A stretch of 64,000 bases of DNA from Anaerovoracaceae bacterium (GTDB lineage: Bacteria > Bacillota > Clostridia > Peptostreptococcales > Anaerovoracaceae): positions 134,858 to 198,857 of the forward strand of contig JAVBLY010000008.1 of assembly GCA_031553035.1 (NCBI GenBank), given 5' to 3'. The notes under the pieces were generated by a model. The model was not told where the DNA came from, did no database searches, and saw only the letters and a list, made by a program, of their open reading frames with translations. Of the stretch, positions 3,160-54,308 are shown one piece after another; the first letter of the stretch is position 1, and each line of letters begins with the position of its first letter. Made by a program: the position numbers and the translations under genes.

Positions 3160-3948
3160 ATGAAACATTTTTCCCTGGACAAAAAAATTGCCATCGTGAC
3201 AGGAGGCGGATCCGGATTGGGTCTGTCTACCGTGAAACGTTTTATGGAAGCAGGTGCTGTTGTAACAGTTGCTGACATTTCGAATACCGCGGGGGGAATC
3301 GCCGCCGACATCGGATGTGATTTTATAAAAACAGACGTGTCAGATGAATCAAGTGTGGAAAATCTTATGAAAAGCGTCAGTGAAAAATACGGGAAACTGG
3401 ATATTTTGGTGAACAATGCAGGCATAATTATGCCTGAACAGCTTCTTGAAGATGCTGTGCTTGAAGACTTTAAGAATTTGTTCGCAGTAAATGTATACGG
3501 TGTTGTAAATGGGCTGAAATACGGAGCCAAATATGTAAGTGACGGCGGGGTCATTTTAAATACTGCGTCTAATTCAGCAAATGGAGATTATGCCGGTTAT
3601 GGTGCGTATATAGCATCAAAAAGCGCAGTAGTCGGTCTTACAAAGGCGGCAGCAGTAGAACTTGCTCACAGAAATATACGTGTAAACTGTATATGTCCGA
3701 ATACCATAGATACGCCAATGGCATATGCTGAAGGATGCGAGACTGAGTTGGCGGTTATGAAGGTGACTGCCCCTTTAGGTAGAATGTGTAAGCCGGAAGA
3801 AGGGGCCGCACTATATCACTTTCTTGCGTCGGATGATTGCCGGTATATTACCGGTGAGGATATATATATAGATGGCGGATTAAAGGCCGGCCCAAGTACC
3901 CAGCTGATAGACTGCATATTGAAAGGTCTGGGTGATGACGTTGAATAA
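3160..3948 (+). CDS. SDR-family oxidoreductase
   Basis: Cofactor loop TGGGSGLG, NNAG, and catalytic YxxxK (YIASKSA). GGAGGA lies before the ATG at 3160. Confidence 0.85.
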   Translation: MKHFSLDKKIAIVTGGGSGLGLSTVKRFMEAGAVVTVADISNTAGGIAADIGCDFIKTDVSDESSVENLMKSVSEKYGKLDILVNNAGIIMPEQLLEDAVLEDFKNLFAVNVYGVVNGLKYGAKYVSDGGVILNTASNSANGDYAGYGAYIASKSAVVGLTKAAAVELAHRNIRVNCICPNTIDTPMAYAEGCETELAVMKVTAPLGRMCKPEEGAALYHFLASDDCRYITGEDIYIDGGLKAGPSTQLIDCILKGLGDDVE

Positions 3949-4741
3949 ACAGTTTATAGACTTTTCAGATCAGATCTGTCTGGTGACCGGCGCCGGAAGC
4001 GAAAGCGGAATAGGGTTTGCTGTAGCAAAGATCCTGGGTGAACTTGGTGCCTGCGTTGCATTAGTGTCCACAACAGATCGTATTTTCAAAAGAGTAGAGA
4101 GGCTGGAATCCGAAGGCATCAGAGCAAAAGGTTATATAGCAAATTTGATGGATCGGGAGGAGACCAAAAAAACGATAGCACAAATAATCACTGATTTTGG
4201 CGGGTTGCATGTACTGATCAACAATGCGGGGATGACCCAGGTCGGAGAGGAAGAAGATTTTACAGATTTTATGAATGTGACTTATGAAAGCTGGGATTCA
4301 TCCATTGACCGAAATCTTAATTTGACCTTCAATGTGACAAAGGAGGCTTTGCCATTTATGGTTGATGGTAATTACGGAAGGATCGTTAATGTTTCTTCGG
4401 TGACAGGTCCTGTCGTAAGCAATCCCGGGGAAGCTGCATACAGTGCGGCAAAGGCCGCGGTAATCGGTATGGGCCGCTCTCTTGCAATCGAAGTCGGTGG
4501 TAAGAATATAACGGTAAACAATGTTCTGCCCGGCTGGATAGGAACCGCATCTCAGACAGAGAGTGAAGCCGCCGGAGGAGAAAACACGCCTATGGGGCGA
4601 AGCGCCGACGCTGCTGAGGTGGCAAACGCAATCGTTTTTCTCGCATCTGAAAAGGCTTCATATATAACCGGAGAATCACTGGTCGTGGATGGAGGTAATA
4701 CCATCCAGGAATACAAAGGTCCTAAAGAACTTTACTATTGA
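3935..4741 (+). CDS. SDR-family oxidoreductase (second)
   Basis: TGAGSESGIG, NNAG and YSAAKAA motifs. Overlaps the previous SDR stop, which suggests translational coupling. Confidence 0.85.
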   Translation: MTLNKQFIDFSDQICLVTGAGSESGIGFAVAKILGELGACVALVSTTDRIFKRVERLESEGIRAKGYIANLMDREETKKTIAQIITDFGGLHVLINNAGMTQVGEEEDFTDFMNVTYESWDSSIDRNLNLTFNVTKEALPFMVDGNYGRIVNVSSVTGPVVSNPGEAAYSAAKAAVIGMGRSLAIEVGGKNITVNNVLPGWIGTASQTESEAAGGENTPMGRSADAAEVANAIVFLASEKASYITGESLVVDGGNTIQEYKGPKELYY

Positions 4742-4821
4742 TCAAATAACAAAAAATACTTTTTTTACTTTTTGCAGTTTCTCAATGCTATACTACTTGA
4801 AAACTTTGATTGGAGGAATTT

Positions 4822-5493
4822 ATGAAAAAAAGTAATAATAAGTATTTTTTTATTGCAGGGGGGTTACTTTTAACGTTCATATTGTTTACGGTGGCTTTGA
4901 TGGCTATGGATGTCCGCTCAATCGGCCCGGATCAAAGCAGTGTAGGCCTTGGGGCATTGAATGGATTTGTGCTTAGTGAGCTTGGCGCAAACATGGTTTG
5001 GTATCGTATTACCGCCGTGATTGGGGTTCTGTCAATTATCATTGCACTAGGTTTTGCCATAGCCGGTGTAATACAATTAATAAAAAGAAAAAGCTTTAGG
5101 TATGTGGATAAAAGTATTATTGCGCTTGGTGTTTTTTATGTTATTTTGGTAGATATATATATTTTTTTCGAATTATTTGTTGTAAATTACAGACCTATTA
5201 TCATGGATGGTATATTTGAGGCATCCTATCCATCTTCTCACACAATGATTGTGCTGTTCATAATGGGAACTGCAATGATCCAGTTTCATTTTAAAATAAA
5301 AAAGGACAACCTTAGGGTTGCAGTAAATACTTGTTTGGCCGTACTTATTGTAATAATGATAGTCGGGAGGCTCTTATCTGGAGTTCATTGGTTTACTGAC
5401 ATCATAGGGGGTATTCTTCTGGGAGCAGCCCTTATCATGTTTTATTTTATTACTGCCCAAAAGGTGACAAATGAAAAAATATATTTGTCATAA
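4822..5493 (+). CDS. PAP2-family membrane phosphatase
   Basis: Multi-TM protein with PSSH and SGVHWFTDIIGG (PAP2 C2/C3 motifs). GGAGGA RBS before the ATG at 4822. Confidence 0.75.
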   Translation: MKKSNNKYFFIAGGLLLTFILFTVALMAMDVRSIGPDQSSVGLGALNGFVLSELGANMVWYRITAVIGVLSIIIALGFAIAGVIQLIKRKSFRYVDKSIIALGVFYVILVDIYIFFELFVVNYRPIIMDGIFEASYPSSHTMIVLFIMGTAMIQFHFKIKKDNLRVAVNTCLAVLIVIMIVGRLLSGVHWFTDIIGGILLGAALIMFYFITAQKVTNEKIYLS

Positions 5494-5512
5494 GTTAGCA
5501 TAAATTCGTAAT

Positions 5513-6790
5513 TTACATCTTATTAAGCTTTTTGATCAGAATGAATGCGGTCAGGATGCTGATTGCTGACATGATGGCGCATGTGGTCCAGCCTATGCTC
5601 CACATCCCCCGAATTCCAAAAGCTACGCCTACCATCAAAGGCGCAATGGGCATTCCTATGTCCCCGATCCCTCCCGTTATACCGGTGACGATGGGGACTT
5701 CTCTTTCGTGATAGACTTCCGGGAGTATTGAATAAAATGCTCCAAGACCCCATGATCCGCCGAAAGTTATGAGCAGAGCTGATATATAGAGCATTGTAAA
5801 GCTTCCCGAACTTGCGAATACCAGAAAAATTACAGAGATAATGACCAGGATATATCCGAACATGAGAACCAGAATCCTTGCTCTGTCCTTGTTTGCTGAA
5901 CGTGCGGTGAAGAAGTCGGATGTCTTTCCCGATATAAGGCAGGATGCCAGCATTCCGATGGTGACAGCCGTCAGAAGCTTCCCTGTTTCCAGTTCTGTAA
6001 ATCCAAGGGAGCCTGAAAATAGAGGCATATCAACCGTGACAGCCTGTACGGTCCATGTAGTCGCAAAGAAACTTATAGCCAGAAGCCAGAGCTTACTTGT
6101 TGCAAGAAGGTTCTTCTTTGGTTCATCAGGTTTGCCGATATCATCGGCACTGACAGTTTCCATTTCATTTTCAGTTACTTTCTTACGGTTTTGATGCCCG
6201 TCAGGTGATTCTCTGACGGTGATCAGCCATATAACAGCCAGCAGTATCTGTAGAACAGCAAGAGCGTAGTAGGACATTTCCCATGAACTCTTAGATATGA
6301 CGAATCCTGCAAAAGTACCGCCCAGACCGCCTCCGCAGTAAAAAATGCCGTTGAATACAGCTGTCGACAAACCTATATTTTTCTCTTCGATCCAGTTCAT
6401 TATTATAACGAGAAAAACGGGGAATACTATAGATGCAGATCCCTGGATGAATTTCAATATCATAAGAAGCCAGATCTGATCAAGATGGGGGAAGACAAGC
6501 TGTGGAACGACGGCAGCTAATGTTGCGTATATCAGGATAACCCGGCTGCCGAATCTGTTATACATGAATCCTGCAATGATCATTGCGGCTACAATGCCGC
6601 AGGATTTGATGGTATCGCTGGTGAGAAGGATGCTTTGAGATATTCCTGAAACTGCCGAGAGTTCACCGACAGTCATAGAAAACTGGGGGAACTGGGATGC
6701 TATCGAGCACCCTACAAACGCATTGATAAAGACGATGTACCAGGCTTTGATTTTAGACGGTTGATTTTTTATTCGGACTGTATTTAGCAA
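5513..6790 (-). CDS. MFS transporter
   Basis: 425 aa, about 12 predicted hydrophobic helices split by a charged central loop (PDGHQNRKKVTENEME...). Apparent TTG start. Confidence 0.75.
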   Translation of the reverse strand: MLNTVRIKNQPSKIKAWYIVFINAFVGCSIASQFPQFSMTVGELSAVSGISQSILLTSDTIKSCGIVAAMIIAGFMYNRFGSRVILIYATLAAVVPQLVFPHLDQIWLLMILKFIQGSASIVFPVFLVIIMNWIEEKNIGLSTAVFNGIFYCGGGLGGTFAGFVISKSSWEMSYYALAVLQILLAVIWLITVRESPDGHQNRKKVTENEMETVSADDIGKPDEPKKNLLATSKLWLLAISFFATTWTVQAVTVDMPLFSGSLGFTELETGKLLTAVTIGMLASCLISGKTSDFFTARSANKDRARILVLMFGYILVIISVIFLVFASSGSFTMLYISALLITFGGSWGLGAFYSILPEVYHEREVPIVTGITGGIGDIGMPIAPLMVGVAFGIRGMWSIGWTTCAIMSAISILTAFILIKKLNKM

Positions 6791-38503: not shown

Positions 38504-39400
38504 ATGGACGGGATAATAAATTTTCTCAAACCGGCGGGAATGACATCTCATGATGCAGTCAGTTTCTTTAGAAGGCTGACAGGCATCAGGAAAGTAGGCC
38601 ATACAGGGACATTGGATCCTATGGCGGCAGGAGTACTTCCCATTTGCATTGGAAAGGCCACCAGACTGATCGAATATCTGGAAGGGGACAAATCATACAG
38701 GGCTATAATGAGATTAGGTGTGAAAAGCGAGACAGGTGATATCTGGGGAAATGAACTTGAAACAGTAGAAGTCCCAAAAATTTTGGAACTTGAGGGCATA
38801 AATGAATGCCTGAAAAGTTTTGAAGGCCGGATAACGCAACGAGTGCCTGGATTTTCGGCTCAGAAGCACGATGGAAGAAAATTATATGAGTATGCAAGAG
38901 CGGGAGAAGAAATACCGGTAAAAGAAAAAAAAGTTGACATTAAAAATGTTACAGTAATTGCATTCGATGATAAAAAAAAAGAAGTGGCATTTGATATATT
39001 TTGTTCAAAAGGGACATATGTAAGAACCATCTGCACTGATGCAGGAGAAAAGCTGGGAACCGGCGGTGTAATGAACTTTCTTCTAAGGACAACGGCAGGA
39101 GGATTGGATGTAAAGGATTCGGTCACTGCCGAAGAACTGAAAAGCGAAATCGATAGCGCAGGAAATATAAACAAGTATCTTCGGGATCCAGGAGATCTGC
39201 TTAAAAATATGAACCGGATCGTTCTAAGCAAAGCAGATGCCAGACTGTTTGTAAATGGCATAGTCTTGGATAAAAGGACCGATGACGAAACATATTATGC
39301 AGTATTCACCGCATCAGAGAATAAGGGCGGAAAACTTATCGGCATAGGACGTGGGAGAAATAAAAAGCTAAAACCACATAAAGTGATTATCTCGGAGTGA
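38504..39400 (+). CDS. truB: tRNA pseudouridine(55) synthase
   Basis: GIINFLKPAGMTSHD, and GHTGTLDPMAAGVLPI with the catalytic Asp. Confidence 0.95.
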   Translation: MDGIINFLKPAGMTSHDAVSFFRRLTGIRKVGHTGTLDPMAAGVLPICIGKATRLIEYLEGDKSYRAIMRLGVKSETGDIWGNELETVEVPKILELEGINECLKSFEGRITQRVPGFSAQKHDGRKLYEYARAGEEIPVKEKKVDIKNVTVIAFDDKKKEVAFDIFCSKGTYVRTICTDAGEKLGTGGVMNFLLRTTAGGLDVKDSVTAEELKSEIDSAGNINKYLRDPGDLLKNMNRIVLSKADARLFVNGIVLDKRTDDETYYAVFTASENKGGKLIGIGRGRNKKLKPHKVIISE

Positions 39401-48920: not shown

Positions 48921-49916
48921 ATGCTTACGAGGATCGATTCTGAAAAAAGAGAATACGAGATACTTTCTAAGTTTGCCGCTAAGGCGGCCGAATCTAAAGG
49001 GAGAAAGCTTCCTGAAGAAAAATGCACTTTAAGGACTGATTTCCAGAGGGACAGGGACAGGATAATACATTCCAAAGCCCTGAGAAGGCTCATGCACAAG
49101 ACTCAGGTTTTTCTGTCTCCGGAAGGAGATCACTTCAGGACAAGATTGACCCACACCCTTGAAGTAAGCCAAATTTCAGCTACGATTTCAAGAGCGCTGT
49201 GTCTGAATGAGGACCTGACCGCTGCCATTGCCATGGGTCATGATCTGGGTCATACACCTTTCGGTCACAGCGGTGAGATCATCCTAAATAAGATTTATCC
49301 GGATGGATTCAAGCATAATGAGCAAAGTATAAGAATAGTCGATGTTCTTGAGAGCAGCGGCGGCAAGAGGGGAATGAATCTGACTGAAGAAGTGCGAAAC
49401 GGGATCCTTAATCACACCGGCAGCGGAATACCGTTCACCCTCGAGGGGCAGGTAGTAAAGATAAGCGACCGCATCGCTTATATAAATCACGACATAGACG
49501 ATGCAATAAGGAGCAATGTCATAAATGCCGATGATCTTCCTTCAGAATGCGTGCGGGTCCTGGGAGATACCAAAAAACTGAGAATCGATACGCTTGTCAA
49601 CGATCTGGTGAAAAACAGCGACGGCAAAGACCGGATCATCCAGGGAGAAGAATGCGCATATCACATGGATGAACTGAGAACATATATGTTCAAAAATGTC
49701 TATCATAATGTTAAAGTAAAAAAAGACGAAGAACTTGAAAATGTGGAAAAAATAATAACCGGGCTGTATGATTTTTATCTGGACCATCCTGAGAAACTCC
49801 CGGAGGAATATCGGAATTTAATAGATGAATTCGGAATACAGGAAATGGTCAAAGACCAAATAGCAGGAATGACAGACAGATACGCATTTGAGACATATGA
49901 AGAATTTATTTTATAG
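48921..49916 (+). CDS. dGTPase-like HD-domain triphosphohydrolase
   Basis: FQRDRDRIIHSKALRRL, RTRLTHTLEV, and GHDLGHTPFGH. Confidence 0.85.
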   Translation: MLTRIDSEKREYEILSKFAAKAAESKGRKLPEEKCTLRTDFQRDRDRIIHSKALRRLMHKTQVFLSPEGDHFRTRLTHTLEVSQISATISRALCLNEDLTAAIAMGHDLGHTPFGHSGEIILNKIYPDGFKHNEQSIRIVDVLESSGGKRGMNLTEEVRNGILNHTGSGIPFTLEGQVVKISDRIAYINHDIDDAIRSNVINADDLPSECVRVLGDTKKLRIDTLVNDLVKNSDGKDRIIQGEECAYHMDELRTYMFKNVYHNVKVKKDEELENVEKIITGLYDFYLDHPEKLPEEYRNLIDEFGIQEMVKDQIAGMTDRYAFETYEEFIL

Positions 49917-49935
49917 ACGTCGAAAGGACATTATC

Positions 49936-50364
49936 ATGAAAAAATTTATAACGGCCGTTATATTGATATTGGTACTTGCATCTATGACAGGCTGTGACGG
50001 ATCGGAGGATGAAGATACATATAATTCGGACTGGCAGGGTTCTCTTAAGTCCAGTCAGGGCATTCAGATAAAAGGTGCCAAGGAAGATGTGGTATTTGCA
50101 ACATACAGCGAAGATTCCGAGATAGAAGGATTCATAAACGAACTTGCACTGGATCAATGGGAACCTGCTGATGTCCCGGAAGGCGCCCAAAAGGAATTTA
50201 TAGCAGTTTTTTACAAGGAAGATGCAAACGGCAATGAAAATGTTGTGGGGAATATCACAACATATAAAGACAGTACTGTAGTATCTCTTGATTCTTTAGG
50301 GTTGAGCCTGGCATTTCAAATGCCCGAAAGTGCACTTGATGCCATTCGTAATGCTCAGCCTTAA
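49936..50364 (+). CDS. small lipoprotein, function unknown
   Basis: MKKFITAVILILVLASMTGC lipobox. Confidence 0.55.
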   Translation: MKKFITAVILILVLASMTGCDGSEDEDTYNSDWQGSLKSSQGIQIKGAKEDVVFATYSEDSEIEGFINELALDQWEPADVPEGAQKEFIAVFYKEDANGNENVVGNITTYKDSTVVSLDSLGLSLAFQMPESALDAIRNAQP

Positions 50365-50375
50365 TTGATTTCTGG

Positions 50376-50768
50376 TTATCGGGTTCTCTGATTTTCCTTA
50401 GGGGTGACACACACTCCCTTGGCTCTGCAAACAACGATAGGTTCGTCAAGAACATCTGCAGCACTCGGACTGATATCCGGTCTTACAGCTATTACTTTTC
50501 TTGCCTCAAACTCCATTATTCTGGAAGTCTCACCGTGCTTAGTGATCTCTCCGTATGCTTCGATAAAGTCACCTCCGTAAATAGGCGCCAGGAATTCCAC
50601 ATCGTTGTATTTAAGGAAAAGTCCTTCATCGCCGTCGATTTGAATAAGCAGCTCAGTAGCAACATCTCCGAAAAGGTGCACTGCATGGGCACCGTCTACA
50701 AGATTTCCGCCGTAATGAATATCCTTATGTGAAATCCTCAATCTTATTGTGCTAGTGTACTTGGTCAT
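50376..50768 (-). CDS. kal: 3-aminobutyryl-CoA ammonia-lyase (hotdog fold)
   Basis: 130 aa from the ATG at 50768 (GGGAGGGAAAAATAT upstream). [34 protein letters not shown]...[17 protein letters not shown] matches my recollection of Kal. Lies next to the lysine-fermentation operon. The longer track ORF (to 51005) is an artefact. Confidence 0.75.
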
Positions 50769-50836
50769 ATATTTTTCCCTCCTGTCAATTATACAATTAT
50801 AATACGTAGTCTTATGAAAAGACAAACTAATATATT

Positions 50837-50852
50837 TGCAAAAAACATGCCA
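50837..50852 (-). promoter_or_regulatory. sigma-54 (-24/-12) promoter of kal
   Basis: The minus strand reads TGGCAT-GTTTT-TTGCA. The -12 element ends 69 nt before the kal ATG. Confidence 0.7.
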
Positions 50853-50880
50853 CTGGGTTATCATGTAAATAGCACAATCT

Positions 50881-50896
50881 GAACCGAAAACGGTTC
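50881..50896. promoter_or_regulatory. inverted repeat GAACC-N6-GGTTC, candidate activator-binding site
   Basis: GAACCGAAAACGGTTC followed by GCGCTA. It has the same core as the palindrome at 53076..53107. Confidence 0.5.
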
Positions 50897-50943
50897 GCGC
50901 TAAGTTGGTCAAATTCAATAAATGTGGACAAAAGGGGATAAAT

Positions 50944-53037
50944 ATGCTACAGGATCTTAGAGAAAAATTTAAATATCGCGGACTCAGAAGATGTCTCGAA
51001 CCCAAAGATGTCTTACCGACTACTGCATGGAAGCTTGATAATTCACCTGGGATCTATCCTGAAGAAATAAGGATATCCGTCAAAAAAGTCATGATGGAAT
51101 CCACCAGTTTCAAACAGGTCTGCATTGAATCAAATGATGAAGCAAACAAGATCATAGACAAGGTAAAAGATATAATCGCTAAGAGAGGGAAGCTTCATAA
51201 TCCGGTGACAGACACAGGAGGACTTCTTTACGGTGTGGTTGAGGAAATAGGTGATTTATATGACAACAAAGCCGGGATCAAGCTTGGCGACAGGGTTATA
51301 TGCAACTCGTCACTTGCTTCCATACCTCTTTTTATTGACAAGATCAATTCAATCGATAAAACTTATTCTCTCATGGATGTGGAAGGTTACGGAATTTTGT
51401 TAAATGATTTTCCGATAGTCAAATATACTGACGAAGTGCCTATCGACCTTTTTATGTTTGCATGTAACGAATCCGGGACTTTATACACTGTAAGTGAATA
51501 TTCCAAAGGCAAACAGGATTTTCTTATAATAGGAGATCACTTTATAAGCAACCTCATGTTCGGTTATGCTATCAAAAAAAGTATAGGCGACAGAGCCCAT
51601 ATCACCTGTCTTCTGGACAAAAAAAGTGAAATGAAGATGACAGGAGGTCGCCTTCAGGAGTTGATGGATTCAACATTTGAAGAAATCCATTATGCAGATA
51701 TCTTAAGTCCTCTTGAGTGTGTAGATAAATTCAATCTTGAGAAGAGATATGACCTTGCTGTAAACTGTGCCGACATACCTGGCGGGGAGACAATCAATGT
51801 AATGGCCGCAAAGGACGGCGGTTCTATTTTTTTCGCTAATATGATTAACAACTACAATACCGCTCTCTATGTAACTGAAGCGATTTCCCGGGTGGTTGAT
51901 ATCAAAGGCGCAGGCGGTTATCTGGAGGAATATGCGGATTTCGATATCGAGCTGGTCAAAGAGATAGCACCGTTTTTTAAAGACACGGTTATAAGTGATA
52001 TCGATATGACTGATGACATGGATTATCCTCTTGGAAGAGAGCAGAAAAGTATAGAGCAGGCGGGATACAGGAAGAGCCTTGCCGATGATTTCATATGTGA
52101 GAGCCGTTCCATGATAACAGTTCTGCAGGAAATACTGAGCGTTGCCAAATACGACTGCAACGTTCTGATAATAGGGGAGACAGGTGTGGGCAAGGAAAAA
52201 GTTGCTAATTTAATACACAAAAACAGCACGAGAAATATGCATCCCTTTGTAAAAGTCAACTGCGCAGCAATAGCGCCCAATCTTCTCGAGTCGGAATTTT
52301 TCGGTTATGAAAAAGGGGCATTTACCGGTGCTACCACTTCAGGCAAACAGGGGTTTTTCGAGATCGCAAATAACGGAATCATGTTTCTTGATGAAGTGGC
52401 AGAACTTCCATTCGACCTTCAGGCCAAGCTTCTGAGAGTCATCCAGGATGGCGAGTTTTACAGGGTGGGCGGTACTGAGCCTGTGAAGACGAATGTCCGC
52501 ATACTCTCAGCTTCAAACAAAGATCTTATGAGGCTTGTTGATGAATCAAAATTCAGAGACGATTTGTATTACCGCCTCAATGTTTTTCCCATAAAAGTGC
52601 CGAATCTTTCGGAAAGGCGGATTGAGGTCCCGACGCTCGCTAAGTATTTTCTTGGAAAATATGCAGAAAAATTTGGTGTAAGCAAAGAGATCAGCAGCGG
52701 TGCACTGGACGTGCTTAAGGAACATGAATGGAAGGGCAATATAAGAGAACTGGAGAATATGGTTCAGCGTGTACTTATCAGCTCTCAGAGCGACAGGATA
52801 ACTGTTATGGATGTGACCAAAGAACTGGATAACGAACTTCTGGAAGGTGGAGAATATATAGATGTGGATTTGAGAACGGATGATGTACTTCCGCTTAAGA
52901 CCCTGGTGGAAGATTTTGAGGGAGGCCTCATAAATAAAGCATGTGAAAAATACGGGTCGACAAGAAAGGCAGCAAAAGCACTTGGCATAAGTCAGACTCA
53001 ACTTGTACGGAAAAGAAGAAGAAATGATAATACATAG
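50944..53037 (+). CDS. sigma-54-dependent transcriptional activator with an N-terminal Kdd-like sensor region
   Basis: AAA+ core with [20 protein letters not shown] and NIRELEN. C-terminal Fis-type [24 protein letters not shown]. The N-terminal ~360 aa aligns with the Kdd product encoded at 53277..54308. Confidence 0.9.
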
Positions 53038-53075: not shown

Positions 53076-53107
53076 ATAATAGCGAACCAATATTGGTTCG
53101 CTATTAT
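53076..53107. promoter_or_regulatory. 32-bp perfect palindrome, candidate upstream activating sequence
   Basis: ATAATAGCGAACCAATATTGGTTCGCTATTAT. Its centre lies about 104 bp upstream of the -24 GG. Confidence 0.6.
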
Positions 53108-53115
53108 GCTGTTAT

Positions 53116-53140
53116 GCACCAAAATCGGTTCGAATAGCGA
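53116..53140. promoter_or_regulatory. second, imperfect activator-site candidate
   Basis: GCACC-AAAATC-GGTTCGAATAGCGA shares the GGTTCG and ATAGCGA words with the palindrome. Confidence 0.4.
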
Positions 53141-53193: not shown

Positions 53194-53209
53194 TGGCACG
53201 CCTATTGCT
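53194..53209 (+). promoter_or_regulatory. sigma-54 (-24/-12) promoter of the kdd-kamA...kce operon
   Basis: TGGCAC-GCCTA-TTGCT is an exact match to TGGCAC-N5-TTGCW. The -12 element ends 68 nt before the kdd ATG. Confidence 0.85.
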
Positions 53210-53276: not shown

Positions 53277-54308
53277 ATGAAAAAAGGAAATCCGTTCGGA
53301 ACACACAGAGTTATTTCACCAAAAGGGGTTCTGCCTCAGCCGGCAGATGTCATCGACAACACAATGGAGATTTTTGATAACGAAGTACTCATTGATGTCC
53401 AGACACTTAATGTGGACTCTGCCAGTTTCACACAGATCGAAAAGCAGGCAGAAGGTAATATTGAAGAAATCAAAAAGATCATGAAGGGGATCGTCGCTAA
53501 GGCCGGTAAACATAAGAATCCTGTAACAGGTTCAGGTGGAATGCTTATTGGGACAGTCAGGGAAATTGGGCCGGCATATGAAGGTCTGCTAAAAGTAGGG
53601 GACAAAATAGCAACTCTGGTTTCACTTTCACTGACACCCCTCGTTATCGAAGAGATAATCGAAATAAGACCTGACATCGACCAGGTGGATATCAAAGGGC
53701 AGGCAATACTTTTCCAGAGCGGCATCTATGCAGTACTTCCCGACGATATGCCCGAAACTCTTGCATTATCAGTACTTGACGTTGCAGGTGCTCCGGCGCA
53801 GGCAGCAAGAATGGTGCAGGCCGGAGATACGGTTGTGGTAATCGGCGGCGGCGGAAAATCAGGACTTCTCTGTTTGTTTGAAGCAAAGAAAAGAGCCGGA
53901 GTTACGGGCAAGGTCATCTGCGTCGGAGGTTCGGACAAGTCGACAAACAGAGCCAAGAAACTGGGCCTGGCTGATGAATACTTTGCAATGGATGCGACAG
54001 ATGCAGTAGGCATGTATGACAAGATCATGGAACTTACAGACGGACAGCTTGCTGATCTGGTAATCAACTGTGTAAACATAGAGAACACTGAAATGGCTTC
54101 GATTCTGGCATGCAAGGAAAGAGGGATGGTTTACTTCTTCTCAATGGCAACAAGCTTCACAAAAGCAGCCCTCGGCGCGGAAGGCGTAGGAAAAGATGTT
54201 ACTATGATCGTCGGAAACGGTTATGCCAAGGATCATGCCGCTATTGCACTTCAGGTCCTTAGAGATTCACCAGAGATTCGCGAACTATTTGAAGAAATGT
54301 ACGCATGA
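53277..54308 (+). CDS. kdd: L-erythro-3,5-diaminohexanoate dehydrogenase
   Basis: 343 aa. Rossmann loop VVVIGGGGKSG. The size and position beside kamA/kamDE/kce fit Kdd. GGAGGG RBS before the ATG at 53277. Confidence 0.8.
   Translation: MKKGNPFGTHRVISPKGVLPQPADVIDNTMEIFDNEVLIDVQTLNVDSASFTQIEKQAEGNIEEIKKIMKGIVAKAGKHKNPVTGSGGMLIGTVREIGPAYEGLLKVGDKIATLVSLSLTPLVIEEIIEIRPDIDQVDIKGQAILFQSGIYAVLPDDMPETLALSVLDVAGAPAQAARMVQAGDTVVVIGGGGKSGLLCLFEAKKRAGVTGKVICVGGSDKSTNRAKKLGLADEYFAMDATDAVGMYDKIMELTDGQLADLVINCVNIENTEMASILACKERGMVYFFSMATSFTKAALGAEGVGKDVTMIVGNGYAKDHAAIALQVLRDSPEIRELFEEMYA

Follow-up and report, generated by a model that had tools for sequence, protein, structure and literature searches.

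A promoter region in which a sigma-54 target and the gene of its activator diverge from a short spacer is known from the xylR/xylS system of the Pseudomonas putida TOL plasmid pWW0, where the sigma-54 promoter Ps lies back to back with the sigma-70 promoter Pr and the activator, by acting at Ps, lowers the level at which its own gene is transcribed (Marques et al. 1998, cited in PMC3469447). As far as that quoted account goes, the kal locus described here resembles xylR/xylS in having a sigma-54 target promoter that appears, from sequence alone, to be divergent from the activator's own housekeeping-type promoter. Unlike xylR/xylS, it belongs to a Firmicute (Clostridia), its activator has a Kdd-like sensor, a single dimer site takes the place of tandem upstream sites, the core promoters overlap via one self-complementary hexamer, and the site, at about -62 with respect to the sigma-54 promoter, is downstream of the regulator start.

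A closer parallel than xylR/xylS is DVU2106 of Desulfovibrio vulgaris Hildenborough, an enhancer-binding protein (EBP) gene flanked by the orp1 and orp2 sigma-54 units that it activates, with a sigma-70 promoter that is overlapped by its own palindromic site, resulting in negative feedback (PMC3897727). There, as here, the activator gene is found between one divergent and one co-directional sigma-54 unit, whereas neither the pathway nor the sensor domain is related. The orp promoters also depend on IHF sites placed between the promoter and the activator site, which is at about -88 (PMC3897727). Since only ~28 bp separate the palindrome from the promoter in our locus, there is no room for a bending-protein site of this kind.

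Sigma-54 control of a lysine 2,3-aminomutase locus in a Firmicute has been described for Bacillus thuringiensis HD73, which has a sigma-54 kamA promoter and a neighbouring enhancer-binding protein, KamR. Unlike the regulator considered here, KamR has a PAS sensor and its kamA target (HD73_2540-2541) is transcribed in the same direction as kamR, and that locus is tied to sporulation (sigma-K, GerE) rather than to lysine-to-butyrate fermentation (PMC4428206). The sigma-54 regulons of the Clostridiales were surveyed by Nie, Dong and Yang (2019; PMC6615313), who gave the promoter consensus as TTGGCATNNNNNTTGCT. The present locus shares with those regulons the consensus, an activator gene that adjoins its targets and inverted-repeat sites upstream, but their activator sites are mostly 100-250 bp from the promoter, while the kal site is at about -62. 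That survey makes no mention of lysine, kam, kdd or kal and does not include this regulon, and our literature search found no paper joining sigma-54 and lysine fermentation. In our analysis, overlapping back-to-back promoters can be regarded as a compact switch of a kind that was known before, one that can be compared with xylR/xylS and DVU2106/orp. The two traits of this control region that are unusual are the overlap of its core promoters via a common hexamer and its very close, single activator site.

Architecture of the kal-regulator spacer

The window, that is the whole 64-kb stretch of DNA that was analysed, contains the following features at and around the kal promoter.

50376..50768, minus strand: kal, 3-aminobutyryl-CoA ammonia lyase, 130 aa (NCBIfam NF052388, 181 bits, cut-off 160)
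50796..50825, minus strand: sigma-A-like TTGTCT-N18-TATAAT inside the kal leader, a rival or secondary candidate for the kal promoter
50836..50864, plus strand: predicted sigma-A type promoter of the regulator gene (-35 TTGCAA 50836-50841; N17; -10 TATCAT 50859-50864)
50837..50852, minus strand: predicted sigma-54 promoter of kal (-24 TGGCA 50852-50848; -12 TTGCA 50841-50837)
50880..50897, no strand: predicted activator-binding palindrome T-GAACCGAAAACGGTTC-G, from its rarity, invariance and fixed spacing to the promoters
50944..53037, plus strand: regulator, a sigma-54 enhancer-binding protein (Sigma54_activat, AAA_lid_14, HTH_50; Kdd-like N-terminus)
53084-53099 and 53116-53131: two putative activator sites before kdd, centres 32 bp apart
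53194..53209, plus strand: sigma-54 promoter of the kdd-kamABCDE-CoA transferase-kce operon, TGGCACGCCTATTGCT (exact consensus; conserved in relatives)
Downstream of the regulator: kdd, kamA, kamB, kamC, kamD and kamE (profile matches)
3' of the kam genes: CoA transferase A and B, and kce (profile matches)

The kal gene (start codon ATG at 50768, minus strand) is a monocistronic unit that converges on a plus-strand ORF at 49888-50364. This ORF (158 aa) is without a Pfam match, and a similar gene of 154 aa occupies the same position in locus L084. The regulator (ATG at 50944) has a AAA+ domain (PF00158, E 1e-66) in which the GAFTGA loop is intact. Its residues 13-169 (50944-51450) match the N-terminal domain of Kdd (NF052381, E 3e-36; PF26370 in relatives), and therefore the sensor derives from an enzyme of the pathway.

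The minus strand at 50852..50837 reads TGGCATGTTTTTTGCA, or TGGCAT-GTTTT-TTGCA (TGCAAAAAACATGCCA on the plus strand), which is an exact match to the sigma-54 consensus (TGGCAC-N5-TTGCW) with the GG and GC doublets ten bases apart. The sequence-only reading had claimed a -24/-12 promoter at this position, and both the exact match and its conservation in relatives bear the claim out. TGGCAY-N5-TTGCW has three exact matches in the 64-kb window, compared with 0.20 expected, and a count of three was reached in 0 of 100 shuffles. Two of the three flank the regulator gene, one on the kal side and the other before kdd (53194-53209). The third, TGGCATCTGCTTTGCT (39227-39242, minus strand), is antisense within an ORF ending near 39400 and is probably a chance match. 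From the position of the kal promoter, transcription would be expected to start near 50826, giving a 5' UTR of ~58 nt. The distance from the end of the -12 element to the kal ATG had been correctly given as 69 nt, but the kdd leader, put at 68 nt, was counted as 71 nt (TTGCT end 53209, ATG 53280). Moreover, TTGCAA is 45-164 nt away from the kal ATG in the six closest relatives, and as much as 324 nt in more remote ones, so that the argument drawn from the similar leader lengths of kal and kdd was rejected as a coincidence.

The palindrome GAACCGAAAACGGTTC is found at 50881-50896, and in its extended form, GAACCGAAAACGGTTCGCGCTA, at 50881-50902. GAACC-N6-GGTTC has only two exact copies in the window (0.04 expected), this one and that at the kdd promoter (53084-53099), so the earlier claim of an element shared by kal and kdd stands; a copy with one mismatch is located at 53116-53131. 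The inverted repeat GAACCGAAAACGGTTCG at kal matches the kdd sites GAACCAATATTGGTTCG and GCACCAAAATCGGTTCG, and the activator would be expected to bind at 50880..50897. The DNA contigs from run X1 are interrupted precisely where the first kdd activator site forms a long perfect palindrome (53076-53107); this break, with a 32-base contig sitting on the palindrome, is an artefact of the assembler, not biology.

The sequence-only reading had missed what is predicted to be the regulator's own sigma-A promoter, TTGCAA-N17-TATCAT, which the promoter scan lists with 9/12 matches and from which the regulator transcript would start at ~50871. TTGCAA is its own reverse complement and reads as the sigma-54 -12 element toward kal and as the sigma-A -35 hexamer toward the regulator, while the sigma-54 -24 element falls inside the spacer of the sigma-A promoter. 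The 175 bp between kal and the regulator thus contain a rigid cassette of ~60 bp, on the plus strand TTGCAA-N6-TGCCA-N6-TATCAT-N16-GAACCGAAAACGGTTC. At the sequence level, the housekeeping-type promoter of the regulator has its -10 element 16 nt ahead of the palindrome; in activator genes of the autoregulated type (xylR/xylS, DVU2106/orp) such a promoter likewise overlaps the activator's site or comes shortly before it.

Taking both predicted starts as reference points, the palindrome falls at about +11..+26 of the regulator transcript and is centred at about -62.5 relative to the kal start. Centre to centre, the palindrome and the -24/-12 promoter are 44 bp (~4.2 helical turns) apart, and the palindrome ends 47 nt before the regulator ATG, in agreement with the ~45 nt first reported. 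The figure of ~38 bp to the -24 element was also right, measured from the centre to the -24 GG, and is far closer than usual. Where the usual geometry is that of at least two upstream activator sites at ~80-250 bp (range from PMC6615313), kal has one site at about -62.5, and a search that allowed one mismatch found no further site in the kal-regulator spacer or in the start of the regulator gene. A second activator site 32 bp on from the kal palindrome was considered and rejected, as the sequence there does not match by eye. Given its position relative to both genes, the palindrome is best read as an autoregulatory operator that is probably also a proximal activator site. The autoregulation of the divergent regulator that had been raised as a possibility is supported at the level of sequence by the conserved TTGCAA-N17-TATNAT promoter together with a palindrome at this position.

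Conservation and loss of the sigma-54 promoter

Six metagenomic loci encode regulators that are 76-81% identical to that of the window (76-100% for the seven loci with the window included), and in all six kal is directly upstream of the regulator on the opposite strand. The seven kal-regulator spacers are only 46% identical overall. Their invariant alignment columns are TTGCAA, TGCCA(+T), TAT, TG, AA, TGAACCG and CGGT.CG, making up only four invariant blocks: TTGCAA, TGCCA, TAT..T and the palindrome. TGCCA and TTGCAA are unchanged in 7/7, with the 6 nt between them varying, and the gap from the -24 element (TGCCA) to the palindrome is 28 nt in 6/7 and 29 nt in L086. The distance from the palindrome to the regulator ATG, on the other hand, is anything from 19 to 80 nt. 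Since the spacing is fixed inside the module while the outer distances vary, we conclude that the promoter-plus-repeat module is under selection. Conservation in related genomes had been named as a check on the original proposal, and in the alignment that was run both the promoter and the repeat are conserved in close relatives.

For more distant relatives, a scan of genome contigs with the single regulator protein gave no match, and a scan with the full-length regulator alignment caught generic AAA+ motifs (3 true orthologues among 80 loci). The metagenome collection scanned with an alignment of the N-terminal region only yielded 80 orthologous loci. The order kal, regulator (on the other strand), kdd is kept in about 76 loci, with 67 distinct kal-regulator spacers. 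The TTGCAA anchor could be placed in 64 spacers, 39 of which have a -24/-12 pair at ≤1 mismatch (35 distinct cassettes) and 25 of which do not (15 distinct). The TGCCA columns of the 35 distinct cassettes contain T in 34, G in 29 (A in 6), C in 35, C in 35 and A in 34, part of this invariance being there by construction since the class is defined by ≤1 mismatch; the six bases before TGCCA vary freely. Across the survey the -24 element is 28-30 nt from the palindrome, a spacing as fixed as that to the -10 element. The presence of a conserved -24/-12 promoter at this fixed distance from the same GAACCG-N4-CGGTTC element as at kdd makes kal look like a separate unit of the regulon, and the proposal that kal and kdd belong to the same small regulon is supported by the conserved promoter and the shared element.

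In the -10 hexamer, T1, A2 and T6 do not vary in any of the 50 distinct cassettes, with or without the sigma-54 -24 element. Across cassettes the -10 reads TAT[CATG][AG]T, and since position 4 is free while positions 1, 2 and 6 are fixed, this is the pattern expected of a real sigma-A -10 element. In the 25 spacers without the sigma-54 pair the TGCCA columns hold random bases, while TTGCAA, the -10 and the palindrome are kept, the palindrome being 16-17 nt after the -10 in 24/25. It follows that, within the cassette, the regulator promoter and its operator are what is kept most universally. A large subset of the loci, the window's clade among them, has the sigma-54 promoter as well. This promoter is also found in the cultured Aminipila butyrica (CP048649.1), where the kal cassette (L167 1325-1510) is TTGCAA-N6-TGCCA-N6-TATGAT-N17-GAACCGATTTTGGTTC and kdd (L167 3575-4010) has two sites and a sigma-54 promoter.

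Two further features were seen in the survey. Tandem kdd paralogues, ~72-74% and 73-84% identical to the window's Kdd, follow the regulator in the distant loci L099, L102, L118, L126, L131, L132, L137, L144, L152, L154, L158, L163 and L165. An extra GAACC half-site over the regulator RBS (GGAG[CT]GAACC), ~25-35 nt after the palindrome, is found in L118, L144, L161, L140, L116, L120 and L121. It is without counterpart in the window and its close relatives, and may be a second operator in these distant lineages.

The promoter class goes together with the state of the GAFTGA loop. In 31 distinct loci an intact loop (GAFTGA or GSFTGA) goes with a sigma-54 promoter at kal and another at kdd, whereas loci whose loop has decayed are without one at either gene, the GAACC-N6-GGTTC sites remaining. 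The decayed forms include DESKGL, GAFAGE, GVLSGE, GTMAGE, a deletion, GAYTDG, GAFSDA and GTDQSA, and in some of these regulators the Walker B DE has become DD. The loci concerned are as follows.

Decayed-loop loci of one lineage: L119, L123-L125, L127, L129, L130, L142-L148, L156, L157, L164
Other decayed-loop loci: L160, L141, L136, L133; L140, L116; L120, L121; L111

Most of these have a near-consensus sigma-A promoter at kal instead. In the spacers without the sigma-54 pair the kal sigma-A promoters consist of TTTACA, TGGACA or TTGAAA, N16-18 and TATAAT, and the replacements within the decayed-loop clade of T[GA]GACA or TTTACA, N17 and TATAAT; kdd has a sigma-A promoter in the L160/L136/L133/L141, L140/L116 and L111 lines. 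A strong sigma-A promoter toward kal is found in only 1/39 sigma-54-type spacers (L122). Placed on the regulator tree, the decayed forms all belong to a single clade of 29 rows, with a minimum of 2 changes. The covariation of GAFTGA with promoter class is striking, but as it amounts to only 2 independent contrasts, not enough for a sign test, no significance can be claimed for it. To judge from these sequences, the clade looks like a sigma-54 circuit converted to sigma-A through ~2 independent changes.

A few loci do not fall neatly into either class. L002 (a Senimuribacter MAG, 3800-6345) has kept GAFTGA, with a weakened kal -24 (TGGCGC) and TGGACA-N17-TATAAT at kdd, and L122 has both promoter types at kal; these two look transitional. 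In L113-L115, which have also kept GAFTGA, the promoter is of the sigma-54 type at kdd and of the sigma-A type at kal, and this looks like an intermediate or mixed state.

The survey bears directly on the question of whether a sigma-54 promoter functions here at all. It could be that the cassette is simply the regulator's sigma-A promoter with its operator and that kal is transcribed from TTGTCT-N18-TATAAT, which is the best sigma-70-type match in the region (10/12), and some sister lineages clearly do have a sigma-A promoter at kal. However, those lineages show a much better promoter and are without TGCCA, while TTGTCT/TATAAT is not conserved, the best scores of the close relatives having 2.5-4 mismatches at shifting positions. 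Furthermore, sigma-70-like matches are not enriched (11 found, 9.8 in shuffles), whereas TGCCA is the only conserved part of the sigma-A spacer, invariant among the seven close loci and nearly so in the 35 distant cassettes. We therefore regard a kal served by sigma-A only as very unlikely.

A sigma-54 holoenzyme that acts only as a repressor, blocking the overlapping regulator promoter while unactivated and contributing little to kal transcription, would find its basis in the physical overlap of the promoters, with TTGCAA in common and the -24 inside the sigma-A spacer. The site is nevertheless oriented toward kal, and in every lineage its distance from the kal ribosome-binding site is suitable. 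In addition, the lineages that lose the -24/-12 site gain a dedicated sigma-A promoter at kal, which implies that the site was the kal promoter. This makes a purely repressive role extremely improbable. Taken with the exact match and its conservation, we consider it likely that the sequence first singled out is a genuine sigma-54 promoter, conserved in evolution, and that it places kal under the neighbouring activator.

RNA data consisted of the assembled contigs of one metatranscriptome from the same study (invertebrate gut). These contigs cover kal (50402-50686, stopping short of the 5' end), kdd (53400-53730) and kamA, and the regulator has no contig in that one metatranscriptome. This coverage fits with co-expressed targets and a low level of regulator RNA, and gives a weak hint of negative autoregulation.

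Proposed activation of kal and control of the activator

We propose that the sigma-54 promoter probably drives kal under the adjacent activator and overlaps the activator's sigma-A promoter, with the palindrome being an autoregulatory operator and, probably, a proximal tether. In this model, TGGCA-N6-TTGCA on the minus strand would fire a single-gene kal transcript and the enhancer-binding protein with its Kdd sensor would switch on kal together with the kdd-to-kce operon, while TTGCAA-N17-TATCAT on the plus strand would have the activator gene transcribed via sigma-A. Since TTGCAA is common to both promoters, bound sigma-54 and sigma-A holoenzymes should exclude each other. The palindrome would bind one activator dimer, and its occupancy may lower the activator's own synthesis, a negative feedback whose direction is suggested by the position of the site. 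Most likely, the activator would be tethered at about -62, on roughly the same helical face as the kal promoter and within reach of the closed complex. Since no more than ~20 bp of DNA would be left free by a site at -62, which is too little for a loop, activation would have to occur by direct reach of the AAA+ ring, and this is plausible given the size of the ring and a linker of ~20 residues.

Sigma-54 enhancers can work over kilobases, and Bacillus subtilis rocG uses the distant rocABC enhancer. In the same way, the paired kdd sites (53084-53131), 2.2 kb away, might fire kal by looping, with the local palindrome being an operator for autorepression only. At kdd there are two sites, separated by 32 bp and at distances that are typical (about -95 and -127), compared with the one at kal, at about -62. 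Also, since the palindrome keeps its spacing to the regulator -10 even where kal is without a sigma-54 promoter, its conserved role may be that of an operator only. Against this, the 28-30 nt that separate it from the -24 are just as fixed, and the regulator gene of ~2.1 kb always lies between the kdd sites and kal. On balance, a distal enhancer shared with kdd seems unlikely, and activation of kal from the local palindrome is tentatively preferred.

A stronger form of the proximal model can be put forward as a tentative possibility only. One dimer might act as a two-way toggle that decides which polymerase takes TTGCAA, with kal on and the activator off, or the reverse. Such a site would be an enhancer that works without looping, and the sister lineages would then record the conversion of sigma-54 to sigma-A.

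Implications for lysine fermentation

Kal catalyses the last lysine-specific step of the lysine-to-butyrate fermentation, a pathway that is important in gut and sediment anaerobes and for the regulation of which no description was found in the literature searched. Joining kal with the kdd-to-kce operon would complete a small and self-contained sigma-54 regulon, the activator of which takes its sensor from a pathway enzyme. As Aminipila butyrica is a cultured isolate, the model can be tested at the bench. The overlap of the two promoters with one common site would offer a natural case for studying how near an EBP can sit to its promoter and how an activator limits its own synthesis. Finally, the sister lineages, apparently converted to sigma-A, would provide a natural series on the rewiring of enhancer-dependent circuits.
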